Virus record (IMG/VR): IMGVR_UViG_3300046534_001898
Source: an uncultured virus (IMG/VR IMGVR_UViG_3300046534_001898)
Lineage: Duplodnaviria; Heunggongvirae; Uroviricota; Caudoviricetes
Length of the DNA stretch: 20,000 nucleotides
Reading direction: 5' to 3' (one strand)
The position numbers and the translations under genes are program-made. Of the stretch, positions 1,587 to 15,052 are shown in pieces; the stretch's first letter is position 1, and every line of letters begins with the position of its first letter. Under the pieces are notes generated by a model. The model was not told the DNA's origin, did not search any database, and saw only the letters and a program-made list of their open reading frames with translations.

Positions 1587-1659
1587 GGGGCTGTAGCTAA
1601 ACTGGCTTAGCACCTCCCTTGCACGGAGAAGCATGTGGGTTCGACTCCCATCAGCTCCA
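1587..1659 (+). tRNA. tRNA-Ala(TGC)
   Basis: Acceptor GGGGCTG/CAGCTCC with G3:U70, D stem GCTA/TAGC, anticodon arm CTCC-CTTGCAC-GGAG, T arm GTGGG-TTCGACT-CCCAT. Confidence 0.93.
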
Positions 1660-1672
1660 CAACATTTTAATT

Positions 1673-2746
1673 ATGAAACAAATTACGTTATTTCCTATGC
1701 AATCTACAGATGACTTGCATAGAGTTAAATTGGGAATTGATCCCACAAGCGATAAGCTCCACTTGGGTCATTTGGCTCCTTTAAGAATTGCACGAAAGAT
1801 GCAGGAACGAGGAAAGCACTTGACATTGGTTTTAGGTACGTTTACAGCTCAAATGGGCGATCCTTCGGGACGAGATAAAGCTAGACCTATTTTACCAGCG
1901 GAAGAGGTTAAGCAGAACGGAGAGAAGCTTTTAGAACAAGCTTCTAAAGTTTTGATCGAAGGTTTTGATGTTTTTAGAAATGGAGATGTTTTCGATAAGA
2001 TGACAGTTCCAGAATTAATGGCATTGGTTTCTAATTTTACATTGAAGAGAATTACATCGAGAGATGCTTTTCAGCTTAGAATTGAAAACAACCAGTCAAT
2101 TTCTATTCAGGAATTGATTGTCCCAGTTCTTCAGGGTTTTGACAGTGTTTCCTTGAAGACTGAAATCGAGATTGGAGGTTCTGATCAGTTGTTCAACTTT
2201 CAATTGACCAGAGAATTGCAACAGATGCATGGTCTTGAACCAGAGGTTTGTGTTATGACTCCTATCTTGAGTGGGACTGACGGTAGGAAGATGTCAAAAT
2301 CTTTAGGGAATTGCATCTTTTTGGATGAGACTCCTGAAAACATGTTTGGTCTTTGTATGAGTATTTCGGATGAAGTTATGGATGAGGAATTTATTCCAAT
2401 ATTAACTGATCTAAAAGACTTGGAAGAAAGTCCAATAAAAAGAAAGATGCAAATGGCGTTTGATATCGTGGAACAGATTCACGGAATTAATGCGGCTAGA
2501 TTGGCTCAGAAGCATTTTGAATCTACAATTCAGAATAGACAGCTTCCGCAAGACATTAAAACAACCAATCACAAAGATATCATTGATATCATCAAAGAAG
2601 TTAGAAACTGTAGTGGTTCTGAAGCTATGAGGTTGATTAAAGGTGGTGGAATTAAGATTGATGGAAAGAAGGTCGAGGAGCGTTGTGAAGTCAATCAAGG
2701 TGTTGTTGTAAAGGTTGGTAAGAGAGACTTTGTAGAAGTCATCTGA
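1673..2746 (+). CDS. tyrS: tyrosyl-tRNA synthetase
   Basis: KLGIDPTSDKLHLGH (HIGH motif), GDPSGR, GGSDQLFN, KMSKS and a C-terminal S4-like domain (SEAMRLIKGGGIKIDG..VGKR). Start moved to ATG 1673 because the ORF-track start lies inside tRNA-Ala. Confidence 0.95.
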   Translation: MKQITLFPMQSTDDLHRVKLGIDPTSDKLHLGHLAPLRIARKMQERGKHLTLVLGTFTAQMGDPSGRDKARPILPAEEVKQNGEKLLEQASKVLIEGFDVFRNGDVFDKMTVPELMALVSNFTLKRITSRDAFQLRIENNQSISIQELIVPVLQGFDSVSLKTEIEIGGSDQLFNFQLTRELQQMHGLEPEVCVMTPILSGTDGRKMSKSLGNCIFLDETPENMFGLCMSISDEVMDEEFIPILTDLKDLEESPIKRKMQMAFDIVEQIHGINAARLAQKHFESTIQNRQLPQDIKTTNHKDIIDIIKEVRNCSGSEAMRLIKGGGIKIDGKKVEERCEVNQGVVVKVGKRDFVEVI

Positions 2747-2750
2747 TAAT

Positions 2751-2824
2751 GGGGGCGCATGTGCCAAGGCTGGCGAGGATGCTTTGCAAGCAACCTGTGG
2801 TGAATTCGATTTTCACCGTCTCCA
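2751..2824 (+). tRNA. tRNA-Ala(TGC), atypical D region, copy 2
   Basis: 72/74 nt identical to 1266-1339; both differences preserve pairing. Confidence 0.8.
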
Positions 2825-2829
2825 CAAGA

Positions 2830-2855
2830 TGTAACAAATCTTTAATTTTAGCGTT
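2830..2855 (+). promoter_or_regulatory. ECF-sigma-like promoter TGTAAC-N16-CGTT
   Basis: One of five identically spaced intergenic copies; ATG lies 8 nt downstream. Confidence 0.7.
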
Positions 2856-2863
2856 TAAGAATT

Positions 2864-3211
2864 ATGGATTTACAAGAATTATGCAAGCATGATAATGGGA
2901 CAGAAATTGTAGGGGAATCAATTGAGTTAAAATATGGCATGAAACCATACTCAGGAGATTATTTAAGTTTTCAGTTTCCTAAGAATTATAAAACAAAACA
3001 TCATACAGTAATTGAATTTTGTTTTAAATCTCAGTCTTCTGATCTTTTTGATAAGTATTCAGAGTTGGGTGATGACAATCCAAATTGGATTGTAAAAACA
3101 AGAGTGTGTACAAGTCATATTTTTATGTCTCAACCCCATATTTTATTTAGTCTTATGGTGTCTATTCCAAACGAAGAGGCTAAAGATATTTTAAAAAATG
3201 CCTTTAAATAA
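2864..3211 (+). CDS. hypothetical protein
   Basis: 115-aa ORF directly after the promoter motif. Confidence 0.7.
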   Translation: MDLQELCKHDNGTEIVGESIELKYGMKPYSGDYLSFQFPKNYKTKHHTVIEFCFKSQSSDLFDKYSELGDDNPNWIVKTRVCTSHIFMSQPHILFSLMVSIPNEEAKDILKNAFK

Positions 3212-3219
3212 AAGTAATA

Positions 3220-4362
3220 ATGAAACTGAATTCTGTAGAAGAAATAAGGGAGACAAGTATTGAGAGATTTGTTGCAAAATACAAATTGAAGCATAAAGAT
3301 TATGGACATAAGTTCAGTCTTAAATACGATCAGCTTGATACTCCTAAGAAACCAGCTGCAAATGAGTGTAGAGGGATTGTTCTTTCAAACAATTTAGAAG
3401 TTCTTTCTATGCCTTTTGCTAGGTTCTCAAATTACAATGAGACTTCTCGGAAGGATATAGATTGGGAAACTGCAACGTATTGGGAGAAGACTGATGGAAC
3501 AATGATTCAATATTACTATGATCATATTATTGATAAATGGTGTGTTGGAACTACTGGTACAGCGGAAGCTGTAGATAATGTTTCTAGTAGAGATAAGATC
3601 AAGCAAATTGAGAATCATTATGATTTCAACTTGACTGATTTGTTTTACAAGGTTTGTGAAGAAAACGGGATTGACTTAACACAATGCGAAAAAGAAAATT
3701 ACACTTTCATATTTGAGCTTGCTACTGAATGTAATATTGTCATCAATAGCTATGAAAAAAGGCGTATAGTCCTTTTGGGGATTAGAGACTTAGCTTCTTT
3801 AAAAGAATTGTCTCAAGATGATTTGGATAGATGGGCAGAGGCTTTGAGTTGCGAAAGACCAAGGCAATACTTTTTTGAGTCTGAAACAGAAATGATTTCT
3901 TCTCTAAAAAATGTAAAGCATGGTGATGTTAATTTTGAGGGGTATGTAGTTGTTGATCAGAATCATAACAGGGTAAAAGTTAAATCTAATACCTACATTA
4001 TATTCTCTCAGTTCAATGGAGACATTGAATCCAGATGGAGGTTAGTGGATGTGGTTATTAGCAACGAAATAGATGAGGTAGGTTCTTACTTCCCAAATCT
4101 ATTGGAACCCATGAGAAGCATTGAAAAGAAGTATAAAGAATTAATCGCTCCGATACAAGAAAAATTTGAGTTCCTAAAGGAAAACATTGACTCACTTGAA
4201 AAGAAGGAATTCTTTATCGAGGCTCAAAAGGCAGTTAGCTTCGATAAGAAGAAGAAGATTCTTTTGGGTGTAATGAGCCAACTTCAAAGAGATCGTAATA
4301 TTGATTTCAATGATGCGGTAGATAAAATTGATAAAAGGAAATTGTATAAACTTTTGAAGTAA
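3220..4362 (+). CDS. T4 Rnl1-family RNA ligase
   Basis: ECRGIV..PFARFSNY, nucleotidyltransferase motif I EKTDGT, FIFEL, EGYVV, RVKVKS. Confidence 0.88.
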   Translation: MKLNSVEEIRETSIERFVAKYKLKHKDYGHKFSLKYDQLDTPKKPAANECRGIVLSNNLEVLSMPFARFSNYNETSRKDIDWETATYWEKTDGTMIQYYYDHIIDKWCVGTTGTAEAVDNVSSRDKIKQIENHYDFNLTDLFYKVCEENGIDLTQCEKENYTFIFELATECNIVINSYEKRRIVLLGIRDLASLKELSQDDLDRWAEALSCERPRQYFFESETEMISSLKNVKHGDVNFEGYVVVDQNHNRVKVKSNTYIIFSQFNGDIESRWRLVDVVISNEIDEVGSYFPNLLEPMRSIEKKYKELIAPIQEKFEFLKENIDSLEKKEFFIEAQKAVSFDKKKKILLGVMSQLQRDRNIDFNDAVDKIDKRKLYKLLK

Positions 4363-4493
4363 TGGAAAAAATAGAAATAACCAAAGAAGATTTACAGACC
4401 TTTATGGATGATGTAAACAAGGGTGTAGGTTGGTCAGATACTTCTTATAGAATATGTGAATTTGTAGGTATTGACCCTACAGATGGGGTTTAA
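4362..4493 (+). CDS. small hypothetical protein (43 aa, not in ORF track)
   Basis: TAATG stop-start overlap with the ligase; MEKIEITKEDLQTFMDDVNKGVGWSDTSYRICEFVGIDPTDGV. Confidence 0.6.
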   Translation: MEKIEITKEDLQTFMDDVNKGVGWSDTSYRICEFVGIDPTDGV

Positions 4494-4506
4494 AACGACA
4501 GATAAA

Positions 4507-4686
4507 ATGGGTTGGAAAAGCACATTAGACTTAACTAGAGACGAAGCAGTTTCGCTAATTCAAAAAAGGATGGCGAATCTTGATGAGTTCTCTGATAGTG
4601 AACTAGAAGAAATGATTGAGGGTCTCGGTTATGGAGAGAATACTGAGCTGCCACATTACGGTTGCAATTTTTCAATAGTGGATTAA
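4507..4686 (+). CDS. small hypothetical protein
   Basis: ATG at 4507 (MGWKSTLDLTRDEA) avoids overlap with the 43-aa ORF. Confidence 0.65.
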   Translation: MGWKSTLDLTRDEAVSLIQKRMANLDEFSDSELEEMIEGLGYGENTELPHYGCNFSIVD

Positions 4687-4702
4687 TATAAAATTAGAAA
4701 CA

Positions 4703-6199
4703 ATGGCTGGATTAAAAATTACAGGTAAGGACTTATTAGAGATTGGTTTCGAGAGTGGAAAAACTCTTGGGGTGACTCTTGATGTCGTTAGAAAAGGTTA
4801 CAAGCGTGATCACTGGGATGATGTAACTCCAGTCTTGAAGAAGATGTTGGCTGATCCAGAGGCTTTCTTGAATCACAATATTCTTGGGAGAGCTGCTGAG
4901 ACTTTAATCGTTAAGACAGAATTCGACCCAACCGTTGCTATCAATGACGAAAGTGTTCGTTACGATGTTTATGGTAAGGAAGGAATTGAGCAGGGAGCTT
5001 TCGATCAAATTGATTGGGCTACTAAGTTGCCAGTTGCTATTAGAGGAGCTTTAATGCCAGATGCTCACCAAGGATATGGTTTACCAATCGGAGGTGTACT
5101 TGCAACTGATAACGCTATTATTCCTTACGGAGTAGGTGTTGATATCGGTTGTAGAATGTGTTTGACAGTTTATGACACTAAAAGCGATTTCATTACTGGA
5201 AACAGAAAGTTCTTAGCTGATATCTTGAGGAAGAATGCTTTCTTTGGAATCAACGGAAACGACATTACCCTTGAGCATGAGATTTTGGATAACATCAATG
5301 AGACTGATGTGGTCTTTGCTAGAAATTTAATTGATAAAGCGCAAGCTCAATTAGGAACTTCTGGTGGAGGAAATCATTTCATTGACTTTGGACATGTTGA
5401 TATCACTGATGTTAATAACGAGTTTGGATTAGAAATAGGAAGGTACTTTGGTATCTTGTCACACTCAGGATCGAGAGGTTTTGGTGCTAAGATTTCTAAT
5501 GAGTATACCGAAAGAGCGAGAGCTTCTTGTATGCTTCCATCACAAGTTAAAGACTTGGCTTGGTTAGATATGGATTCTCAGGATGGTCATGAGTATTGGG
5601 TCGCTATGAATTTAGCGGGAGATTATGCTTCGGCTTGTCACGAGAAGATGCATGAGAGAATATCGACTGCTCTTGGTATTGAAGAAGTCGGAAGAGTAGA
5701 GAATCACCACAACTTCGCATGGAAGGAAATGGTGAACGGCAAGGAGGCTATTGTTCACCGTAAGGGAGCGACTCCAGCTGGTGAGGGAGTTATGGGAATC
5801 ATACCGGGTTCGATGGTCTCAAAAGGATATATCGTTCGTGGTAAAGGGAATCCACACTCTTTATCTTCAGCTTCTCACGGAGCAGGAAGACTACACTCAA
5901 GAACAAAGTGTAAAGAGTTGTTCAACAAAGAAACAGTAGCTGCAACGTTGAGAAACGCTGAAGTAACACTTATTGGTGGAGGTCTCGATGAGGCTCCAGA
6001 TGCTTACAAAGATATTGACACAGTTATGTCTTACCAGAATAACTTGGTTGATATTGTAGGAAGTTTCACTCCACAAGTTGTTCGTATGGCTTCTAGTTCT
6101 GAAGAAGGTCTTTCTTGGAAGGAACGTAAAGATAAGAAGAAAAAAGACCAAGAACGTAAAATAAGACAAAGTAAAGAAAGAGAGCGTAAGATGCGTTAA
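4703..6199 (+). CDS. rtcB: RtcB family RNA ligase (3'-phosphate/5'-OH)
   Basis: MPDAHQGYGLPIGG, GVDIGC, LGTSGGGNHF, HSGSRG, NHHN, VHRKGAT, IPGSM, SASHGAGR, DEAPDAYK; highly basic C-terminal tail. Confidence 0.96.
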   Translation: MAGLKITGKDLLEIGFESGKTLGVTLDVVRKGYKRDHWDDVTPVLKKMLADPEAFLNHNILGRAAETLIVKTEFDPTVAINDESVRYDVYGKEGIEQGAFDQIDWATKLPVAIRGALMPDAHQGYGLPIGGVLATDNAIIPYGVGVDIGCRMCLTVYDTKSDFITGNRKFLADILRKNAFFGINGNDITLEHEILDNINETDVVFARNLIDKAQAQLGTSGGGNHFIDFGHVDITDVNNEFGLEIGRYFGILSHSGSRGFGAKISNEYTERARASCMLPSQVKDLAWLDMDSQDGHEYWVAMNLAGDYASACHEKMHERISTALGIEEVGRVENHHNFAWKEMVNGKEAIVHRKGATPAGEGVMGIIPGSMVSKGYIVRGKGNPHSLSSASHGAGRLHSRTKCKELFNKETVAATLRNAEVTLIGGGLDEAPDAYKDIDTVMSYQNNLVDIVGSFTPQVVRMASSSEEGLSWKERKDKKKKDQERKIRQSKERERKMR

Positions 6200-6215
6200 G
6201 CGCTCTCTTTAATTT

Positions 6216-6303
6216 GGCAATATGGCAGAGTGGTCAATTGCGCTCGGCTCATATCCGAGTTTCCGAAAGGATACCGTTGGTTCAAATCCAACTATTGCCA
6301 CCA
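6216..6303 (+). tRNA. tRNA with CAT anticodon (Met or Ile2) and a long variable arm
   Basis: Acceptor GGCAATA/TATTGCC plus ACCA, anticodon arm CTCGG-CTCATAT-CCGAG, variable hairpin TCC-GAAA-GGA, T arm GTTGG-TTCAAAT-CCAAC. Confidence 0.88.
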
Positions 6304-6695: not shown

Positions 6696-7268
6696 TTAAA
6701 ATTCAGCTTGTTTAAAGCTTTTAAAAACGCAGGATTCTGGCTTAATGCTAATGGTGACTTTGCTGAGATCATCATTACCGTAATCGCTATTACCATAATC
6801 GACACTTTCTAGTTTGCAATTTGTTAGAGTCTATTTATCTAATGCTACTCCAGCGCAATCAAGGTCTGTAAACGTACAGTCAAAACCTTTGTTTTCAGAT
6901 AACATTTTCTGAATCCCATTAAGAGTAGAGTTGTTTGTTAGTTCCAGAATTTGAATACTCACTGGTAGCCATTCGCACCCTTTAACTGATTCGTTGATTT
7001 TTATTTTAGGTCTATCAGCTGTTTGAACTAGATAGGAATCAATACCGAATTTTTCTGGGAATCTGAATTCAAAACTGTTTTTGAGTTTTGGCTCATTTGC
7101 TAGAGGAGCTAAATTATATTCCTTAATTAACCTTTCTCTTCTTTGGGTTTCTTGGTTTTCTTTTAAGGATGATTTAACTTCCTCTCTAATTGTGTACATT
7201 AAATCTACTCGTTCACGTTGCTCAGGTGTCATGAGGTCTATTGGTATTGGGTTATAGTAATCTGGCAT
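6696..7268 (-). pseudogene. tail-tube (T4 gp19-like) gene interrupted by an in-frame TAG at 6831-6833
   Basis: EPKLKNSFEFRFP..GIDSYLVQTADRPK..EWLPV..LDCAGVALDK*TLTNCKLESVDYGNSDYGNDDLSKVTISIKPESCVF; the frame stays open for 44 codons after the TAG. Confidence 0.65.
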
Positions 7269-7307
7269 GTTTCTTTTTCTTTTAAATAAGAATTGAAAAA
7301 TTTTTCG

Positions 7308-7315
7308 TATCTTTG
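7308..7315 (+). promoter_or_regulatory. Bacteroidota housekeeping promoter -7 element
   Basis: TATCTTTG matches TAnnTTTG in a divergent intergenic region. Confidence 0.55.
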
Positions 7316-7430
7316 CGATATGGAATTAATAAAGAGTTACGAATTTCATTCAAGATGAAAGCTATGGTGAGCAAGGGTGGGCTTTCTTTTTGAATGATAA
7401 GAAAGTTGAGTTAAATGAAGAATAACATAA

Positions 7431-7886
7431 ATGATATTAATAGATAAGAATGGAACCACTGGTTGGTCTCATATGGTGGCATCCACAGTCTCGGAATTGC
7501 ATGATTTTGCAAAAAGGGTAGGTTGCACAAGATTTTCGAACAAGAGAGGTAAATACCAACCTCACTATGATGTTCGGGACGAAGAGTTTGATAAAGCAGT
7601 TGATCTAGGGGCAGTCCTAGTATCGAGTAAAGCGATTATACATTTTTTAAGATTACATTATGGTTCTGATATTTCTCAGGATCGTATCAATAAGTTGGTT
7701 ATGCTTTGGGAGGTGTTTCATTTTGCTCTTAATGAGGAAACATTAGAAACCTCTAGTGATTCCCATAAAGAGAAGTTAAAAAAAATGATGGAATCTGCCG
7801 AGAAGAGATATGATGAATATTCAGAATTTGGATCGGAAGTGGCGGAGTATTTGGCGATGTTTGAATTAATTTCAAAAGTTTTTTAA
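7431..7886 (+). CDS. DUF4031-domain protein
   Basis: WSHMVASTVSELHDFAKRVG...PHYDV...AVDLGAV pattern typical of DUF4031, plus a helical C-terminal extension. Confidence 0.75.
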   Translation: MILIDKNGTTGWSHMVASTVSELHDFAKRVGCTRFSNKRGKYQPHYDVRDEEFDKAVDLGAVLVSSKAIIHFLRLHYGSDISQDRINKLVMLWEVFHFALNEETLETSSDSHKEKLKKMMESAEKRYDEYSEFGSEVAEYLAMFELISKVF

Positions 7887-7892
7887 AAAAAG

Positions 7893-7923
7893 TTTGCCAA
7901 TTAGAAAAACATTCATATATTTG
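7893..7923 (+). promoter_or_regulatory. Bacteroidota promoter (-33 TTTG, -7 TATATTTG)
   Basis: TTTG at 7893-7896, 19-nt spacer, TATATTTG at 7916-7923, followed by a leader hairpin ATTAGGGGAAACGTTCCTTAAT. Confidence 0.75.
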
Positions 7924-7961
7924 CATCCGCATTAGGGGAAACGTTCCTTAATAAATACCTG

Positions 7962-8090
7962 TCCGATGTAGCTCAGTGGTAGAGCGCCTAATATCTCATT
8001 TAGAGATTATGAAATTTTTAGGTTTTGACATTATAAATGATACTACGCATTCCAAGCGGGAGGTCGGGGGTTCGATTCCCTCCATCGGCA
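7962..8090 (+). ncRNA. tRNA-Gly(TCC)-like RNA with a ~57-nt structured insert in the anticodon stem
   Basis: Acceptor TCCGATG/CATCGGC, canonical D arm GCTC-AGTGGTA-GAGC, insert at ~7989-8045, then CGC-ATTCCAA-GCGGG and T arm GGGGG-TTCGATT-CCCTC. Confidence 0.85.
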
Positions 8091-8092
8091 CT

Positions 8093-8329
8093 AAAATTAG
8101 ACATTTAATAGCTTACTCAACTCCAAATATGAAAAACAGCTATTGAGATTACTAATTTTTTAATTAGACACACAACATTAGTGAGACATTTTTTAGCTTA
8201 CTCTACAACTATTAATTGAAAACAGCAGCTGAAGAGATTACTCACTTATAAAATTATAAAACATTGACTTAGACATTTGGTAGCTTACTCAACTCAAATG
8301 TGAAAAACAGCTGCAAAGATTACTAAGTC
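8093..8329 (+). repeat. three tandem structured RNA motif units (~87-nt period)
   Basis: Units at 8093-8159, 8180-8246 and 8266-8329, each with the layout outer stem-ACATTT-(N2)TAGCT-TACTC-loop-AGCT(N3)-(G/A)AGATTA-outer stem; the outer stems covary. Confidence 0.88.
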
Positions 8330-8360
8330 TTTATTATTAACTTTTAATACCCTATACAAA

Positions 8361-10415
8361 ATGAGACATTTTATTACATTTCAAAAGCTTAAAGGAATCT
8401 ATGTAGGTTCTGGAGACGCTAGTGTTGATAACTCAGGACTAGTACACCAAATTAATCACGAACTGATGTCAGTTGGTTATGTGATGGATCAGGAGCTTTT
8501 CCAAACGCTTTCTAAGCAGTCGGAAGAGACTTTGAATGAGGTGTATACTCAGATTGTTGCAGGGATTAGAAAAGTCGTTCCACAAGGAACTTTTGAGCCA
8601 ATCTACAGAAACTTTCCGCAGAGTGTCGTGCAAATGTCACACTTCGAATTTGTTGTTAATGCGATTATGCATTACTGGAGTTTTGGTACATGGAGACCAG
8701 AGGACGCTGAGTACATCAACCGAGAGCTTAAGCTTGAGGCTGTTAACTACAAGGCTGTTCGTTTGATTAACTCTGCCCAATATTTTGGTATCTTCACTAA
8801 CATCCTATTTTCAGTAAATTCTATTTCTGGATTCGATAAGGAATGTGTTGATTTCTACCTTGATAATCACGCAGACAATATTAAGCTTTCTGGAATCAAG
8901 TTCAAGGAGACTTTAGCTTACGTTGGTCAGAGATTAATGGATGCATCTACATCTGCTCTTCCGACAACCGAGAATGGGGAAGCGGTTCTTCCAACTAGAA
9001 ATGCAACAGATATCCTTAGGGTTTATGCTGCATACTCTGGTGGGGATGAAGGTCTGAAAGAGAACACTAAGTTCAAGAAGTTGAAGTCATCTCAAAGAAG
9101 GCTTCTTAGAAATTCGCTTAACAATTCGTACAACTTGGAGGATTCCTTCAAAACGTACCGTGAGCAATGGTTGAGAGTTTTATTCTACTTGAACCCAAGA
9201 CAGTACTCTGAAAGATACCCTAACTTGGGAATCTTCTCTGATGCGTTGAGAAACGCACCAGATTCTCTTGAAACTTTCAATGCTAAAATTGAAAAGTATC
9301 TTAGAAATGAGGATGAGGCAATCTTTGATCTTTTGACAAAGAGAGCTGGTGTCTTTTCTAGAAGACTGGATCATTTGGTTCGAATCTTTGGAAAGACTGC
9401 CATCCAGAAGTATGTTGCTTTAGATAACATCACCTTTACTAACTTAGTTGCAACTTACAACCATTTCGATGGTCGTGATAAGGAGCAAGCTGGTAGGGGA
9501 GTTATCTTAGCTTCGCAGGGCGCTTCTAACGTTGTTAATTATGATGGTTTGGCTCCACTTGACACCAAGTTGGTAACCTACATCAAAGGTGCGATTATGA
9601 CACGTCTACGTGACTTTAAGATTGATGATAACAAGAAGTATTTCATTGATAGATCATTGTACTACACTCCAATGGCGATGAACAACAGAGCTTCCGAGCT
9701 TTCGTTGGATTCAAAAGTGATCGGTGAGTCAGTAATCTACGAAGGAAAGAAGACACTTCGTTTGTATGTTCACTGGGAAGGGCGTTCAGATATTGATCTT
9801 TCAGCATTTATTATCGATAACGAGAATAATGTAAAGAAGATTGGTTGGAACTCTTACCACCATTCAGATGGGTATGTTGTTTACTCAGGTGACAACACAG
9901 GTCTAGAGGATAAGAATGCCGAGTATATGGACATCAACGTTAAGGACGTTCCTAAAAATGTTGAGTGGATCATTACGGAAGCTCGAATCTATAGCGGGCC
10001 ATCTACTTACGCTGACTACAACGGAAAGGCTCATATGGGATGGATGGAAACAAATCACCCAGAAGAAAACTTGCACTGGCAACCTACTAAGTTGGTAAAT
10101 GCTAAGTTGCTTCAAGCTAAAGCTAGCACTGCTTATTTGATGGCATATCATGCCCCAACTAAAAGCGTTGTTTATCTTGACATGGCAATGGGTAGTTCGT
10201 CAGTATCTAATAACCAAGATGCTGTTAAAATGAGAATGTTCTTGGAATCATTCATTAGTTTGGATGATGGACAAGATATTTCTTGGGACAAATTGAATCA
10301 AGGACATTTGTTAGAGCTTAGGCTTCCTAACATTGTAGAAGATTCAAAAGAAGCTGATGTTGTTTTTGATGGAGCATCATCGGTGGATGAAATCTCGACT
10401 CTGATTACGTCATAA
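8361..10415 (+). CDS. large helical protein with a C-terminal TerD-like domain (resembles a RING-less MXAN_6230/SCO0854-type protein; possibly ROT/TROVE-like)
   Basis: PIYRNFPQSV..NAIMHYWS, TDILRV..SGGD, RAGVFSRRLDHLVR; C-terminal LRLYVHW..DIDLSA..YSGD..AEYMDI is TerD-like. Confidence 0.65.
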   Translation: MRHFITFQKLKGIYVGSGDASVDNSGLVHQINHELMSVGYVMDQELFQTLSKQSEETLNEVYTQIVAGIRKVVPQGTFEPIYRNFPQSVVQMSHFEFVVNAIMHYWSFGTWRPEDAEYINRELKLEAVNYKAVRLINSAQYFGIFTNILFSVNSISGFDKECVDFYLDNHADNIKLSGIKFKETLAYVGQRLMDASTSALPTTENGEAVLPTRNATDILRVYAAYSGGDEGLKENTKFKKLKSSQRRLLRNSLNNSYNLEDSFKTYREQWLRVLFYLNPRQYSERYPNLGIFSDALRNAPDSLETFNAKIEKYLRNEDEAIFDLLTKRAGVFSRRLDHLVRIFGKTAIQKYVALDNITFTNLVATYNHFDGRDKEQAGRGVILASQGASNVVNYDGLAPLDTKLVTYIKGAIMTRLRDFKIDDNKKYFIDRSLYYTPMAMNNRASELSLDSKVIGESVIYEGKKTLRLYVHWEGRSDIDLSAFIIDNENNVKKIGWNSYHHSDGYVVYSGDNTGLEDKNAEYMDINVKDVPKNVEWIITEARIYSGPSTYADYNGKAHMGWMETNHPEENLHWQPTKLVNAKLLQAKASTAYLMAYHAPTKSVVYLDMAMGSSSVSNNQDAVKMRMFLESFISLDDGQDISWDKLNQGHLLELRLPNIVEDSKEADVVFDGASSVDEISTLITS

Positions 10416-10436
10416 CTGAGATTTCATGTGGGAGCA

Positions 10437-10469
10437 AAAGAGGGGTGGATTTATTCATCCCTTTTTTTT
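10437..10469 (+). terminator. intrinsic terminator
   Basis: AGGGGTGGA-TTTA-TTCATCCCT followed by a T run. Confidence 0.8.
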
Positions 10470-10504
10470 GCTTTTATGTGTAACTTTTTGTATATTTGTG
10501 CGTT
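10467..10504 (+). promoter_or_regulatory. composite promoter (TTTG/TATATTTG overlapping TGTAAC-N16-CGTT)
   Basis: The 26-mer TGTAACTTTTTGTATATTTGTGCGTT is identical to 18875-18900. Confidence 0.72.
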
Positions 10505-10605
10505 GTGTTTATATACACAAGAAGAAAAAGAAGAAATATGTTTTACATTACAACACCATACGATATGATTTTATTTGAGTAAGTACTCATTTAAAAACAT
10601 ATCAA

Positions 10606-11412
10606 ATGAAAAATCATTCTAAAAACCCACGATACAAAGAGCTTCTTGCTCTTGAAGATCGTAAGTCAGAAATTTGGCAAGCCAAAAGAAAGAATCGCAT
10701 CAAACTTGATGAACCTTATCATCGAGGATACAATCACTCTCTTGTGCCGAGACATGATATCCAAAATCGAGAAGATGCTTGGGTGTTCTGGGCTATCTGC
10801 GAACTTTTTGTTAGAAGCAAATACACAAGAAGACAAAAGCCGTCAACCAAAGAAAAGAAAATTGGTTGGAACGCTCTTCAGTCTTATTACCCAACCGTTA
10901 GAAAAATTTCTGAGGAGGAATACAATAAGTATGTTCCTGCCATCCAGAAACACTTCACTCCTATTGAGTGGGATTACAGACTTGAGCCAGAATACAAGTG
11001 GACTAGTTTTTCTTTTAACAAAGATGACGGTTACTGGAATGATACTGGTAACATCAAAAAAGTTTGGAAAGCCTCAAGAAAAGGATACCAATGCACTATT
11101 CCTTCATTCTATTTCATAACCAAGACTGAAAAGAACATGGTTGAATACGGATACAACGTTGATGAGCTTCTTGAGCAAGAGCTTGCTGAAATCAACGATC
11201 TTCTTTACCGAGATTTCCGTCACGTCAACAAGTGGGACAAGTGGAGCTGTGGCGCTCCTAAACACTTCAGAGAAGCAGTCAACAAATCTAAGTCAGCTCA
11301 TAATAAGCGTGTGCTTAAGAGAATCGTTGAGCTTGATAACTCTGATGATGCCAATCGCCATAATGAAGAGTTTGTTCCTTTCAAAAGAGATGCGGGTTGG
11401 TACTGGTGGTAA
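10606..11412 (+). CDS. basic hypothetical protein
   Basis: 268-aa Lys/Arg/Trp-rich ORF with its own promoter and terminator. Confidence 0.8.
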   Translation: MKNHSKNPRYKELLALEDRKSEIWQAKRKNRIKLDEPYHRGYNHSLVPRHDIQNREDAWVFWAICELFVRSKYTRRQKPSTKEKKIGWNALQSYYPTVRKISEEEYNKYVPAIQKHFTPIEWDYRLEPEYKWTSFSFNKDDGYWNDTGNIKKVWKASRKGYQCTIPSFYFITKTEKNMVEYGYNVDELLEQELAEINDLLYRDFRHVNKWDKWSCGAPKHFREAVNKSKSAHNKRVLKRIVELDNSDDANRHNEEFVPFKRDAGWYWW

Positions 11413-11556
11413 GATTCTATCGGGGTAAAAAACAGTATAATTTACCCCGATAGCAAAAATAGGGGTAAATTATTTCCATTATTTGGAATTTTTAAATATT
11501 GAGATCAAAAAGCAAAAGAAGAAAGTTAAAAAATAAGAAGTTTAGTTTCTAAAATT

Positions 11557-11586
11557 AAAAGGGGTGGAGAAATTCACCCTTTTTTT
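11557..11586 (+). terminator. intrinsic terminator
   Basis: GGGGTGGA-GAAA-TTCACCCT followed by a T run; similar to the 10437 terminator. Confidence 0.8.
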
Positions 11587-11611
11587 GTAACATTTTTTTT
11601 AAATTGCCGTT
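11586..11611 (+). promoter_or_regulatory. ECF-sigma-like promoter TGTAAC-N16-CGTT
   Basis: Same spacing as the other copies; ATG lies 8 nt downstream. Confidence 0.7.
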
Positions 11612-11619
11612 TACTTTTT

Positions 11620-12240
11620 ATGGAATACCAAAAGTTTGATGTAGAGTTTCTTAAAAAATATTGGGAAGCTCTTAGAAATGTAGAAAGACATACTGTTGAG
11701 AGGTATGGTGATAAATGCCCGAAAGAGGTGTTTGTTCGAAGGACATTTAAGAAGTGGTTTTCAGGAAAGACAATTGCTGTTATTGAAAATGAAGGTACTG
11801 GGTGGTTTTCAGATAATCATTCGGAAATAAAGAAGAAAGTGAAAAAATACCTTCAAATTGGAGGTCTTACATACTACTATGGTTATGGAGAAGAGTTGGA
11901 AGTGTATACCTCTAATGCTATAGAAATTTATAAGTTTGGCTCCAATAAGATTGGTTTCAATGATCTTCTTGATATGGAGTTCCAAGAAATTTCCTCTTCT
12001 AAATTTAATGAGGTTGTTGATCTATTTAAAGATGACCGACCTGATAAAAAATTCACTGTTAAGTATTATGATTTTAATAAAAAATCAAACTGTGATATTC
12101 CATCTTTTGAAATTGTAGAAGCAAAAGATGATAGAGAAGCTTTGAAAAATTTTGAGATTGCAAATAAGAAAAACTTAAAAGAAGGTGAAGCTTATAAATT
12201 AATGGCTTCAGAAGCTGTGGAATATGTCAAAGAAAATTGA
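11620..12240 (+). CDS. hypothetical protein
   Basis: 206-aa ORF; no recognised motif. Confidence 0.75.
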   Translation: MEYQKFDVEFLKKYWEALRNVERHTVERYGDKCPKEVFVRRTFKKWFSGKTIAVIENEGTGWFSDNHSEIKKKVKKYLQIGGLTYYYGYGEELEVYTSNAIEIYKFGSNKIGFNDLLDMEFQEISSSKFNEVVDLFKDDRPDKKFTVKYYDFNKKSNCDIPSFEIVEAKDDREALKNFEIANKKNLKEGEAYKLMASEAVEYVKEN

Positions 12241-12598: not shown

Positions 12599-15052
12599 AT
12601 GAAGAATTTACTTTTACTAATTTGCCTGTCTTTTGTATCAATTTCAATGGTGGCTCAGAACGATTTCAGCGTAGACGGAACTTTTACGTACACTGAAAAC
12701 GTAGACTTCGATAACCAATACCTAGAGAATCTCTCTACAGGTGGAGTCGCCTTGATTGACACCAATCAGGTAATTGTAATTGACTCCGATGGAGCAGTTA
12801 ATGCAGTGTCTCCTATAACTATTCCTTCAGGATGGAATTATGTAGATCAAAATGGAGTAGATCAAATGTCTACTTTTTATGATTCAGATTTTCCTACCGA
12901 TTGCGCTGTTTTCTATAATAACACTGATTTACTAAAAGTTAATTTGACTACGGGAGTAACTAGTTCGTTAAACGTTAGTGCTGGAATTCCAGAGATTGAT
13001 GATGCAGGTAATAGTACAGGAGCATCATTGACTTTTGATGTTATTCAAGTAACTTATGCATTTAGCTCCTTTTATCTTGTTTCATACAATGTGTTTGTAG
13101 ACGGAGTATATGATAGAAAGACGGCTTGTTTGTTTGATATGGAAGGAGGTGGAGCGTATGCTTCTGACATTTTTGAAAACTACATTACTGGAGACATGGG
13201 GTTATATGATCGAATTGTATATCTCCATTCAGATGTAACTAATAGTGGATCATTTTTAACAATCACAAACAATCTTATTACTAATAAAATTGATTACTCA
13301 GTTGTTGATGATGCCAATCCAATAGGCACAATTAATCTAAGTGACACATACACCGTAACGATTGATAACACATTTGCCACCAACTATAACTCACTTGGGA
13401 TCACTAACCTACAATCTACCTATTCAGTTGGAAATAATAGATGTCTTGTTATGGGGACAATAGGGGCAAATCAGTTTACGGTATTAGAGGCTAACGGAAC
13501 AATTTACTCATCGTTTACTTATCCTCCTTATCTAGTAAATTCACAGGCAACAATTACTGATGTAGATATTTATGATTCATCTACTGGAACAGGGGATTTT
13601 GATCCGTTAAATACTCACGTAATTGCTTTAACTTTTCAAGCAAGTAATTACTTATCACCAGCACCATACGGAATTAGTGTGTTTGATGCTCAAGGATGCC
13701 CTTGGCAGTTTTTCGCCAACAGCTCTTCTGGGTCATGTGTTTTTAATTCACAAGGTTTAGCGGGTGAAGGTTTGAATTTAAATGGTTTAGCAAAAGGAAT
13801 CCAGTTTGATTCCAATGGAAAAATATTAGTGTCAGGAGGAGATTTTGAAACATTTAACCAAGCAGGTTCTAACACAGTGTTTAGGGTTGGGGGGTTTGAA
13901 AGTGGTTCTATTTTGATTTTGGGATGTAATGATGTCTTGGCTGCAAACTACGATCCAAATGCCACATTTAATGACGGTACTTGTGATTACTCAGCCTTCA
14001 ATTTGATTTGCTATGCCTCTGTAAATGCTGATTCAACTGTTACGGTAAATTGGGCAGAAGGTTCAACAGAGTTTTCAGACTTTAGAATTTACCGTGAATC
14101 AGGATCGGTGGGCGTATTTGATTTAGTGTCTACTGTAAATGATGGAGATGACCTTATGAGAAGTTATAACGACACTGGAGTAAACGCTTTTGTTCAAGAG
14201 CATCGATATAAAGTTGTAGGGCTTCTTACGGCTTCTGATACGACCTCTGGAAATACTCCGCTAGCAAACTTATCTCTAGTAGCAGAACGTGGCACAATCA
14301 AGCTTAATTCGCTTCCAGATATTGATAGTCAAATAGTATTAACTTGGAACGCTCCAGCTAACACTCCACTGACTTCTTATTATATTGTAGAGACTGATAC
14401 AGAAACAGTTATTGACACAGTATCATCTAACGTTCTTTCGTACACTGTAATTAGTCCTTCAGTTGCAGGAGATTACTATATTTCTTTTGACGCACCAGCT
14501 TGTGTGGAAGGAAACTCTCAAAGTTTTACAGGAAATATAGCAAATAATCAGAAATCTAATAAAAATAGAGGAACCAATAAAAACTTAGTAGATGGTCTTG
14601 TTAGGTCAAATGCTGATAATGTCATTCGTGGATGCACTTACCAAATTGCCACCAATTATGATCCTCTAGCAACATCTGATAATGGTTCTTGCATTCTTGA
14701 TTGCGAAGATGATTGTCCTACTGACATAAATAACGATGGTGTTACCGATGCAGGTGACTTACTTATGTTCCTTGGAGGTTTTGGAAATTCTTGTGATGGC
14801 AGTGAGTTTGCCGACAATAACTTAAGATCAGAAGGTAGTTTAGAGTCGGTTGTAAAAAGTGTTCTCGATGAAATTGTGTTTTCACAAGATGTAGTTCAAC
14901 TTAGAGAGCCTATGCAGTTCGATATTTACTCAGTTAGTGGTCAGTTGCTAGTTAGTAAGTTCTCTGATCAAATTAACTTTAGACAGCTATCTTCAGGAAC
15001 GTACATTATTGTTACCGAAAGAGACTCTCGATACTTTGTGATCCAAAATTAA
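12599..15052 (+). CDS. secreted protein with a putative T9SS C-terminal sorting domain
   Basis: Sec signal MKNLLLLICLSFVSISMVAQ; two GCxxxxAxNYDPxATxxxGxC repeats; FN3-like segments; dockerin/EF-hand-like CPTDINNDGVTDAGDLLMFLGGFG; C-terminal IYSVSGQLL...LSSGTYII. Confidence 0.75.
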   Translation: MKNLLLLICLSFVSISMVAQNDFSVDGTFTYTENVDFDNQYLENLSTGGVALIDTNQVIVIDSDGAVNAVSPITIPSGWNYVDQNGVDQMSTFYDSDFPTDCAVFYNNTDLLKVNLTTGVTSSLNVSAGIPEIDDAGNSTGASLTFDVIQVTYAFSSFYLVSYNVFVDGVYDRKTACLFDMEGGGAYASDIFENYITGDMGLYDRIVYLHSDVTNSGSFLTITNNLITNKIDYSVVDDANPIGTINLSDTYTVTIDNTFATNYNSLGITNLQSTYSVGNNRCLVMGTIGANQFTVLEANGTIYSSFTYPPYLVNSQATITDVDIYDSSTGTGDFDPLNTHVIALTFQASNYLSPAPYGISVFDAQGCPWQFFANSSSGSCVFNSQGLAGEGLNLNGLAKGIQFDSNGKILVSGGDFETFNQAGSNTVFRVGGFESGSILILGCNDVLAANYDPNATFNDGTCDYSAFNLICYASVNADSTVTVNWAEGSTEFSDFRIYRESGSVGVFDLVSTVNDGDDLMRSYNDTGVNAFVQEHRYKVVGLLTASDTTSGNTPLANLSLVAERGTIKLNSLPDIDSQIVLTWNAPANTPLTSYYIVETDTETVIDTVSSNVLSYTVISPSVAGDYYISFDAPACVEGNSQSFTGNIANNQKSNKNRGTNKNLVDGLVRSNADNVIRGCTYQIATNYDPLATSDNGSCILDCEDDCPTDINNDGVTDAGDLLMFLGGFGNSCDGSEFADNNLRSEGSLESVVKSVLDEIVFSQDVVQLREPMQFDIYSVSGQLLVSKFSDQINFRQLSSGTYIIVTERDSRYFVIQN

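Follow-up and report, generated by a model that had tools for sequence, protein, structure and literature searches.

The 20,000-nt stretch of DNA analyzed here (the window) comes from an uncultured virus of the Caudoviricetes (IMG/VR record IMGVR_UViG_3300046534_001898). Its source record spans 75.9 kb, is estimated to be 26% complete, and contains 25 tRNA calls. On the + strand, three tandem hairpins preceded by a tRNA-shaped RNA lie directly upstream of a gene for a 684-aa protein. Do these RNAs control the gene, are they removed from something else, or are they products in their own right that the protein binds? We favor the last of these, namely, that the hairpins and the tRNA-shaped RNA are Y-like small RNAs bound by the adjacent TerD-domain protein, and we put the probability of this reading at roughly 65%.

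Three hairpin units and a fourth copy inside a tRNA-shaped RNA

Three tandem hairpin units had been predicted, and three were found, at 8093..8159, 8180..8246, and 8266..8329 (all on the + strand). They score 70.8, 63.0, and 59.5 bits, respectively, with a covariance model whose matches in the virus's own 75.9-kb genome are exactly these units. The outer stems (8093-8100/8152-8159, 8180-8185/8241-8246, and 8266-8272/8323-8329) all pair as written in the original prediction. In unit 1, ACAT begins at 8101, and the 9-bp helix (8105-8113/8138-8146) is flanked by TACT from 8114 and GATT from 8147. The corresponding parts are ACAT at 8186, helix 8190-8198/8227-8235, and GATT at 8236 in unit 2 and ACAT at 8273, helix 8277-8285/8309-8317, and GATT at 8318 in unit 3. 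The inner stems proposed for units 1 and 2 pair, but that of unit 3 (GGTAGCT/AGCTGCA) has one G-A mismatch. ACATTT and AGATTA, which had been taken as unpaired, are so only in part: covariation places the loop at RCA opposite AUUA, closed by a U·G pair and the 9-bp helix. The outer stems had been called fully covarying. Their sequences do differ among the units, but an AG/CT core is common to all three in the window, so that the strong covariation comes from homologs and not from these three copies.

The folding z-scores of units 1, 2, and 3 on the + strand were -4.07, -2.36, and -3.35, with 0, 5, and 1 of 200 shuffles, respectively, folding as well. In a fold of the whole leader, pair probabilities were 0.52-0.99 for the outer stems and 0.63-1.0 for the inner helices, except for the first three pairs of unit 3 (0-0.06). 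The repeat noted at the gene start, ATGAGACATTTT, is present but is not a further unit, as it has neither UACU nor a partner strand; it encodes the conserved M-K/R-H-F start of the 684-aa protein.

Just upstream of the array, a tRNA-shaped RNA (7962..8090, +; Rfam tRNA, 43.1 bits, E 6e-07) carries a circularly permuted module within its anticodon stem, on the 5' side between positions 28 and 29. This is a real fourth copy (7996..8044, +; 8 of 9 pairs), lying outside the region that the original prediction covered. It opens with the 3' helix strand (7996-8004), GATT (8005-8008), and a short capping hairpin and closes with ACAT (8028-8031), the 5' helix strand (8032-8040), and TACT (8041-8044). 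The embedded helix forms in isolation; in the whole leader, another fold wins and its pair probability is about 0.02. The anticodon hairpin (8046-8058) has the loop ATTCCAA, and the RNA has a U1-C72 mismatch and no encoded CCA. With introns on, ARAGORN reports 7962-8090 as an intron-containing tRNA-Met. Elsewhere, outside the window, a tRNA-shaped gene at G000:C1:30785-30893 has two short hairpins in place of the anticodon arm and carries no module.

A search of positions 7000-11700 against Rfam 15 (E<=5) gave no family for the hairpins, the tRNA alone being significant. A mir-3473 match on unit 2 (19.2 bits, E 2.3) was attributed to chance, as was the exact pattern GACATTT-N2-4-AGCTTACTC, which occurs at 19 viral loci, none of which match the covariance model. 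No published description of the hairpins was found in the literature searched, most subscription papers being outside its reach.

Conservation of the module upstream of homologous genes

Homologs of the 684-aa protein gave 152 matches, with 43-99% identity among the 120 matches listed. From 50 fetched locus records (numbered with L), we dropped near-duplicates (12 records: L001, L044, L046, L059-L061, L063-L066, L068, and L069), records without the gene start (L037, L048, L053, and L056), and the distant L002, and 34 loci were kept, window included. Selection by the motif only ([ACG]CAT-N9-TAC[TC]) gave 88 matches in 30,413 nt of upstream sequence versus 6 in 63,777 nt of gene body, and the 88 matches on the same strand as the gene compare with 2 on the opposite strand. 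At least one copy lies upstream (within 1 kb, same strand) in 30 of the 34 homologous loci. The four loci without an upstream module (L051, L052, L054, and L057) are all GC rich, and the L054 contig also exists as a Myxococcales assembly. In 81 of the 88 copies, a nearby GAYT is immediately preceded by nine bases that pair at 8-9 of 9 positions. When the 9-mer was instead taken from another locus, the number was 5.9 +/- 2.2, with a maximum of 15 over 200 rounds.

Fifty-three short units were aligned with MAFFT; a pairing filter applied at selection makes this alignment lean towards structure. The RNAalifold consensus has a 6-bp outer stem, a 3x4 loop (RCA/AUUA), an invariant U·G pair, and a 9-bp helix followed by UACU. 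In this alignment, 94.8% of cells are paired, compared with 38-52% in slid-partner controls. Covariation in homologs was found, with both sides changing in 15 of 16 pairs. The U·G pair is present in 53 of 53 units and in 15 of 15 embedded sequences.

We also scanned viral contigs from the RNA side, using two degenerate patterns with six free pairs, and obtained 95 loci. All six pairs are present at 14 loci, which are spread over 10 contigs, and the gene is found on 9 of these contigs; it lies within the locus in 11 cases, farther along the contig in 2, and is absent in 1 (L148, a 184-kb record, 53% complete, with one perfect unit). The gene is absent from the 3 five-pair loci and from the 78 poorer-paired loci. 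Because the nine gene-bearing contigs were already known from the protein search, the scan shows that gene-less units are rare and not that there are new co-occurrences.

Hairpins of this kind could form on both DNA strands, and inverted repeats acting at the DNA level (cruciforms or single-stranded DNA signals) or arising by chance would account for them in principle. We regard this as extremely improbable given the invariant U·G (53/53 and 15/15), the fusion to tRNA parts, the position just after a promoter element, and the outcome of the swap control. The original view of an RNA-level motif, probably bound by a protein, agrees with the covariation, the + strand bias of 88 versus 2, and the promoter element just upstream. 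The hairpin family is real, widespread, and uncatalogued in Rfam.

Five cultured phages and one unannotated record encode distant homologs of the protein (22-31% identity). Variant units were read by eye beside the gene in Weasels2, Xoo-sp13, XacN1, LpeD, and RcXuper; these assignments rest on reading the sequence because covariance model R1 is weak there (best score, 22 bits, E 0.015). The variant modules lie at L073 2540-2880, L074 2425-2930, L075 4870-5265, L076 1790-2032, and L078 850-1495. Clade-specific variants have a UUCCUUCU or UACUUCU junction and an ACUUU or CUCGC 3' loop strand. A tmRNA gene is located just upstream of the unit array at L078 417-950 (Rhodobacter phage RcXuper, permuted tmRNA) and at L077 808-1108.

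Plain hairpins, permuted tRNAs, and tRNAs with an inserted module

The RNAs differ in what is attached to the module. Form A, to which the window units belong, is a plain hairpin with an A/U-rich tip of 15-35 nt, and form B has a T-arm hairpin at the tip (L023, L024, L030, L034, L035, and L038). The tip of form C is a circularly permuted tRNA in the order T-arm, looped acceptor stem, D-arm (L032 and L033); some form C RNAs keep the anticodon hairpin as well (the second unit of L033, L062, and Weasels2). Form D has ordinary tRNA topology with the permuted module in the anticodon arm and comprises 18 RNAs in 13 loci (20 rows minus 2 without a D-arm, namely, L036 and the third L038 row). Fifteen of the 18 were aligned; in these, 93.3% of cells of the embedded helix are paired and 9 of 10 pairs change on both sides. 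The three left out have the module in or beside the anticodon loop and not in the stem (L034 3059-3194, L038 1855-1996, and L039 711-856), which suggests that the insertions arose independently. Circular permutation relates form C to form D, and tandem duplication could interconvert the two. On two GC-rich contigs (L026 3853-3975 and L058 3728-3996), tRNA-embedded modules stand alone upstream of the gene. Since L058 is a Myxococcales assembly, the RNA/protein system is not confined to phages.

The embedded module might instead be a removable tRNA intron of a new type, with the protein as part of the splicing machinery and the free hairpins as intron-derived substrates or regulators. ARAGORN calls an intron, and 12 of the 18 form D RNAs have a canonical 7-nt loop with U33 and R37, representing 10 different anticodons, with insertion mostly at one place. 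The window also encodes RtcB and a weak match to T4 RNA ligase 1. However, the remaining 6 of the 18 loops are noncanonical or missing, and three near-identical bodies (L026 and, twice, L058) carry three different loops. The tRNA body in the window, with U1-C72 and A73, does not fit the identity rules for glycine tRNAs, and the genome has intact tRNA-Gly(UCC) genes. Permuted versions with an open-ended module (L033, L062, and Weasels2) cannot be ordinary introns. RtcB is found in the virus's own genome and in 0 of 2 complete relatives, and a T4-type RNA ligase is found in 1 of the 2, leaving one complete relative with neither; a fixed repair-ligase partner is thus not supported. Among 114 ORFs of >=130 aa in 28 loci, no RNA-repair neighbor recurs, and genes for HAD_SAK_2 and HAD_PNKP both occur in a single locus, L038. 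We judge the intron explanation quite unlikely.

Positions 1619-6303 of the window form a cluster for translation and RNA repair that encodes a class I W/Y-type tRNA synthetase, the protein with the weak T4 RNA ligase 1 C-terminal match, RtcB, and tRNAs. Two further tRNAs, at G000:C1:23742-23815 and 24127-24199, have CUA (amber) anticodons, and TAG terminates only 3 of 55 long ORFs, but the coding density, at 0.81, 0.83, and 0.84 under tables 11, 15, and 4, respectively, gives no support for stop-codon recoding.

A TerD-domain protein with a helical-repeat region

The protein that follows the array (684 aa; gene at 8361..10415, +) consists of a helical-repeat region (residues about 128-450) and a TerD domain (about 455-630), the latter matched by Pfam TerD at E 7.7e-06. 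The AlphaFold model has a mean pLDDT of 81.5. Residues about 455-630 adopt the TerD fold (Z 13.2, rmsd 3.4, 150 residues aligned with VIA-align; Foldseek E 3e-05 to 4e-04). After TerD, the next rows for the whole model were Deinococcus radiodurans Rsr (Z 6.6, 287 aligned, rmsd 5.5) and the Ro60 of phage phiLo (Z 6.3, 288 aligned, rmsd 5.4), with Xenopus Ro lower (Z 4.6, 290 aligned). For a second structural comparison, residues 128-450 were folded alone. Three Ro60 structures (9l5y, 2nvo, and 1yvp) align over 247, 247, and 265 of the 323 helical-region residues (Z 6.5-7.0, rmsd 5.3-7.2) and are the sole near-full-length matches, the other 47 rows aligning over 78-139 residues. These Z values are tied with those of unrelated helical repeats (best Z 7.6), and Foldseek gave no match for the helical region at E<=0.001. 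The modeled resemblance of this region to the Ro60/TROVE ring is suggestive but falls short of proof.

Sequence comparisons gave no such likeness. Pfam TROVE matched 0 of 48 homologs and Pfam vWA also 0 of 48, and a sequence search of the PDB returned TerD alone (E 0.05), with no match for the helical-region profile. Ro60 alignments extend to residues 676-684, so that a small vWA remnant may be present in the model. At least 90% K/R was found in 23 alignment columns.

Among the nearest named Atlas clusters is the MXAN_6230/SCO0854 RING-domain family (NF041916; Pfam PF14447, Prok-RING_4), which is homologous over the helical and TerD regions. The NCBIfam NF041916 match to the 684-aa protein has an E value of 8.9e-40 and 136.6 bits, below the 600-bit cutoff, and 6 of 6 proteins gave E 1e-31 to 1e-41 and 108-140 bits. 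Unlike members of that family, the 684-aa protein has no detectable RING finger, nor did any of the 48 homologs have a Pfam match to one. Pfam reportedly describes MXAN_6230/SCO0854-type proteins as ROT/TROVE-like repeats with TerD and a possible role in RNA processing. No description of an RNA partner for the family was found in the literature searched.

The nature of the protein bears on one further idea. The layout had been loosely likened to a type III toxin-antitoxin locus (such as ToxIN, TenpIN, or CptIN), in which RNA repeats upstream of one gene act as antitoxins that neutralize a toxic RNase. An arrangement in which tandem RNA units share a promoter and directly precede a single gene would suit this, as would the terminator-like hairpin between units and gene in Xoo-sp13 and XacN1. 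The likeness did not hold up on closer comparison: the 684-aa helical and TerD protein has no match to a ToxN/TenpN/CptN endoribonuclease (Pfam and PADLOC) or to AbiQ, and no RNase fold is among its structural matches. The units are nonidentical and are not the near-identical pseudoknot repeats of such systems, 4 loci have the gene without an upstream unit, and no terminator separates array and gene in the window. An antitoxin role is very unlikely.

Transcription and genome context

A predicted Bacteroidota-type promoter (7893..7923, +) is formed by TTTG (7893-7896), a 19-nt spacer, and TATATTTG (7916-7923). The Bacteroidota promoter consensus is TAnnTTTG; in the window, such an element precedes the tRNA-shaped gene and sits at -445 relative to the protein gene. 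TAnnTTTG occurs 19-38 nt before the first unit in 12 of 29 loci, and it also precedes the lone L148 unit. No terminator was found between array and gene (8330 to 8361), and the only + strand terminator-like hairpin between 7800 and 10650 follows the gene (10436..10467). With the promoter ahead of the tRNA-shaped gene and a lone + strand terminator after the protein gene, a single precursor is predicted. Two 151-nt contigs in one RNA run fall inside the 684-aa protein gene and none over the hairpin units or 7962-8090, a result that speaks neither for nor against expression of the RNAs. We infer a probable Bacteroidota host from the TAnnTTTG elements together with a weak match to a secretion-system C-terminal sorting domain (E 0.037, below the cutoff).

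Other features of the neighborhood vary among the loci. A DUF4031 gene lies directly upstream in the three closest loci only (window 7431-7886, L022 858-1313, and L023 448-897). L029, L031, and L042 have a common three-gene run about 2 to 4 kb downstream of the gene, ending with an OmpA-domain protein, and a GOLLD-like RNA (97.8 bits, below the cutoff of 150) lies downstream of the gene at L047 2750-3157. A signal peptide is likely in the 817-aa protein encoded at 12599-15052 of the window, which also matches, weakly, fibronectin III and a secretion-system C-terminal sorting domain; such a protein is unusual for a phage.

The original prediction left two roles side by side, processed small RNAs and an autoregulatory array in a 5' untranslated region. 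In the second case, the units would be cis operators in the leader through which the protein controls its own translation or mRNA stability. Position lends this some weight: most copies share the strand of the gene and lie within the 600 nt that precede it, the final copy ends about 8 to 60 nt before the start codon in most loci, and no terminator parts the units from the gene in the window. Against this, copies are found 5 to 8 kb upstream of the gene in G007 (a complete 172-kb genome), several kilobases downstream in G006, downstream in Weasels2, and inside tRNA-shaped RNAs, and in two Xanthomonas phages, Xoo-sp13 and XacN1, a terminator-like hairpin stands between units and gene. Copies up to about 8 kb upstream or several kilobases downstream argue for RNAs that act in trans. 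Processed small RNAs are the better fit, and operators alone are an unlikely explanation, although feedback on the protein's own gene could occur as a side effect.

Comparison with Ro60 and Y RNAs

The closest parallel to Y-like RNAs bound by the adjacent protein is Ro60 (Rsr) with YrlA, YrlB, Yrn1, and Yrn2 (RF02553), where several stem-bulge-stem RNAs stand beside one ring-type protein gene (PMC4201824). Several Y RNAs per locus, some of them plain hairpins, are described there as arising by cleavage of a single precursor encoded upstream of the gene for Ro60, and YrlA as having a conserved YUAY. The system described here shares with this account the plain, T-arm, and T-acceptor-D permuted-tRNA forms, a YUAY after the stem, and one (predicted) precursor that includes a tRNA. 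As in Ro60/Y RNA systems, a long stem with an internal bulge is formed from the 5' and 3' ends (the ends being predicted here), and the RNAs are encoded on the strand of the gene and <4 kb from it (<1 kb upstream in 30 of 34 loci).

In an alignment, the UUAC of the module occupies the place of the conserved YUAY of YrlA, and the T-acceptor-D tRNA-like domain with YUAY before it is present in L032, L033, and L078. This permuted tRNA scores 47.6 (L032), 43.9 (L033), and 40.7 bits (RcXuper, L078) with the Rfam YrlA model; these scores fall below the cutoff of 69 bits and come mostly from the tRNA-like part. The window's three units have no tRNA-like domain, and the highest YrlA score in their own genome is 16.2 bits.

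Several differences set the two systems apart. The Y RNA motif GNCGAA/GGUCCGA is absent, and the 5' strand instead has (A/C)CAU opposite GAUU, with a fixed 9-bp helix. TerD appears to stand in the place of the vWA domain of Ro60, and the protein has no sequence match to TROVE. A form with ordinary tRNA topology and the module wedged in the anticodon stem is not among the Y RNAs as presented in the accessible part of PMC4201824.

The Ro60 of Thermus phage phiLo, which has the Y RNAs Yrl1 and Yrl2, binds and dampens host PNPase (PMC12135203). It resembles the present system in being a phage gene with Y-like hairpins directly upstream, and of the Ro60 structures, its own (9l5y) scores highest against the helical region (Z 7.0, 247 residues). 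In contrast, the phiLo protein has canonical HEAT and vWA domains and its RNAs have the CGAA motif, neither of which was detected in the window system. ROT/TROVE and TerD in jumbo phages are mentioned separately in PMC7824862. The system probably works like a Y RNA system but, by the sequence tests for membership, does not belong to the Y RNAs.

A proposed Ro/Y-like system and its significance

The constancy of the loop, the U·G pair, the helix length, and UACU, in combination with free helix sequence and the gene as the sole constant neighbor, leads us to the reading of Y-like RNAs bound by the adjacent protein. Its parts differ in strength: we think it likely that the module is an RNA site for the 684-aa protein and somewhat less so, though still probable, that the RNAs exist as discrete Y-like species. 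In that case, they would represent a new branch of the Y RNA system. The promoter at 7893-7923 would drive the tRNA-like RNA, units 1 to 3, and the mRNA as one precursor. Host RNases, those that process tRNAs among them, would cut this precursor at its A/U-rich spacers and so release the RNAs. Recognition would fall to the helical region predicted to resemble Ro60, which would contact the RCA/AUUA loop, its U·G included, and probably also UACU at the junction 9 bp along. At the opposite end the RNAs vary, with an A-rich loop, a T-arm, a whole permuted tRNA, or a tRNA body that has an anticodon hairpin.

According to PMC4201824, Y RNAs link Ro60 to PNPase as a tether and also gate the Ro60 cavity. 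By analogy with this and with the dampening of PNPase by the phiLo protein, the RNAs described here might gate the putative ring of the 684-aa protein and serve as tethers or baits for host enzymes whose substrates are tRNAs or structured RNAs; for enzymes acting on tRNAs, the hint comes from the variable ends, which derive from tRNA. Candidate targets would be exoribonucleases such as PNPase and anticodon nucleases, with phage translation being kept going as a result. We offer this tether or decoy role tentatively. More doubtful, if conceivable, is a wider proposal: that large phages and some bacteria have a second Ro/Y system of independent origin, built from a TerD-fused ring protein and a portable module grafted repeatedly onto tRNAs in both circular permutations. 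Its tRNAs of many anticodons would serve as baits or tethers against host tRNA-cutting defenses, and TerD would be a possible signal sensor.

Until now, Y RNAs have had a single known partner, Ro60, and a single binding motif; here, a different motif accompanies a different, uncharacterized protein family. This TerD-fused helical family is common in large phages, and the presence of variant units beside distant homologs in cultured phages opens it to direct experiment. The steps between a plain hairpin, a permuted tRNA mimic, and a tRNA with an inserted module are visible among its RNAs, which bears on the origin of Y RNAs from tRNAs and on the role of TerD-fused helical proteins. It may also be that certain phage genes annotated as "tRNAs with introns" or as pseudo-tRNAs in fact encode Y-like RNAs.
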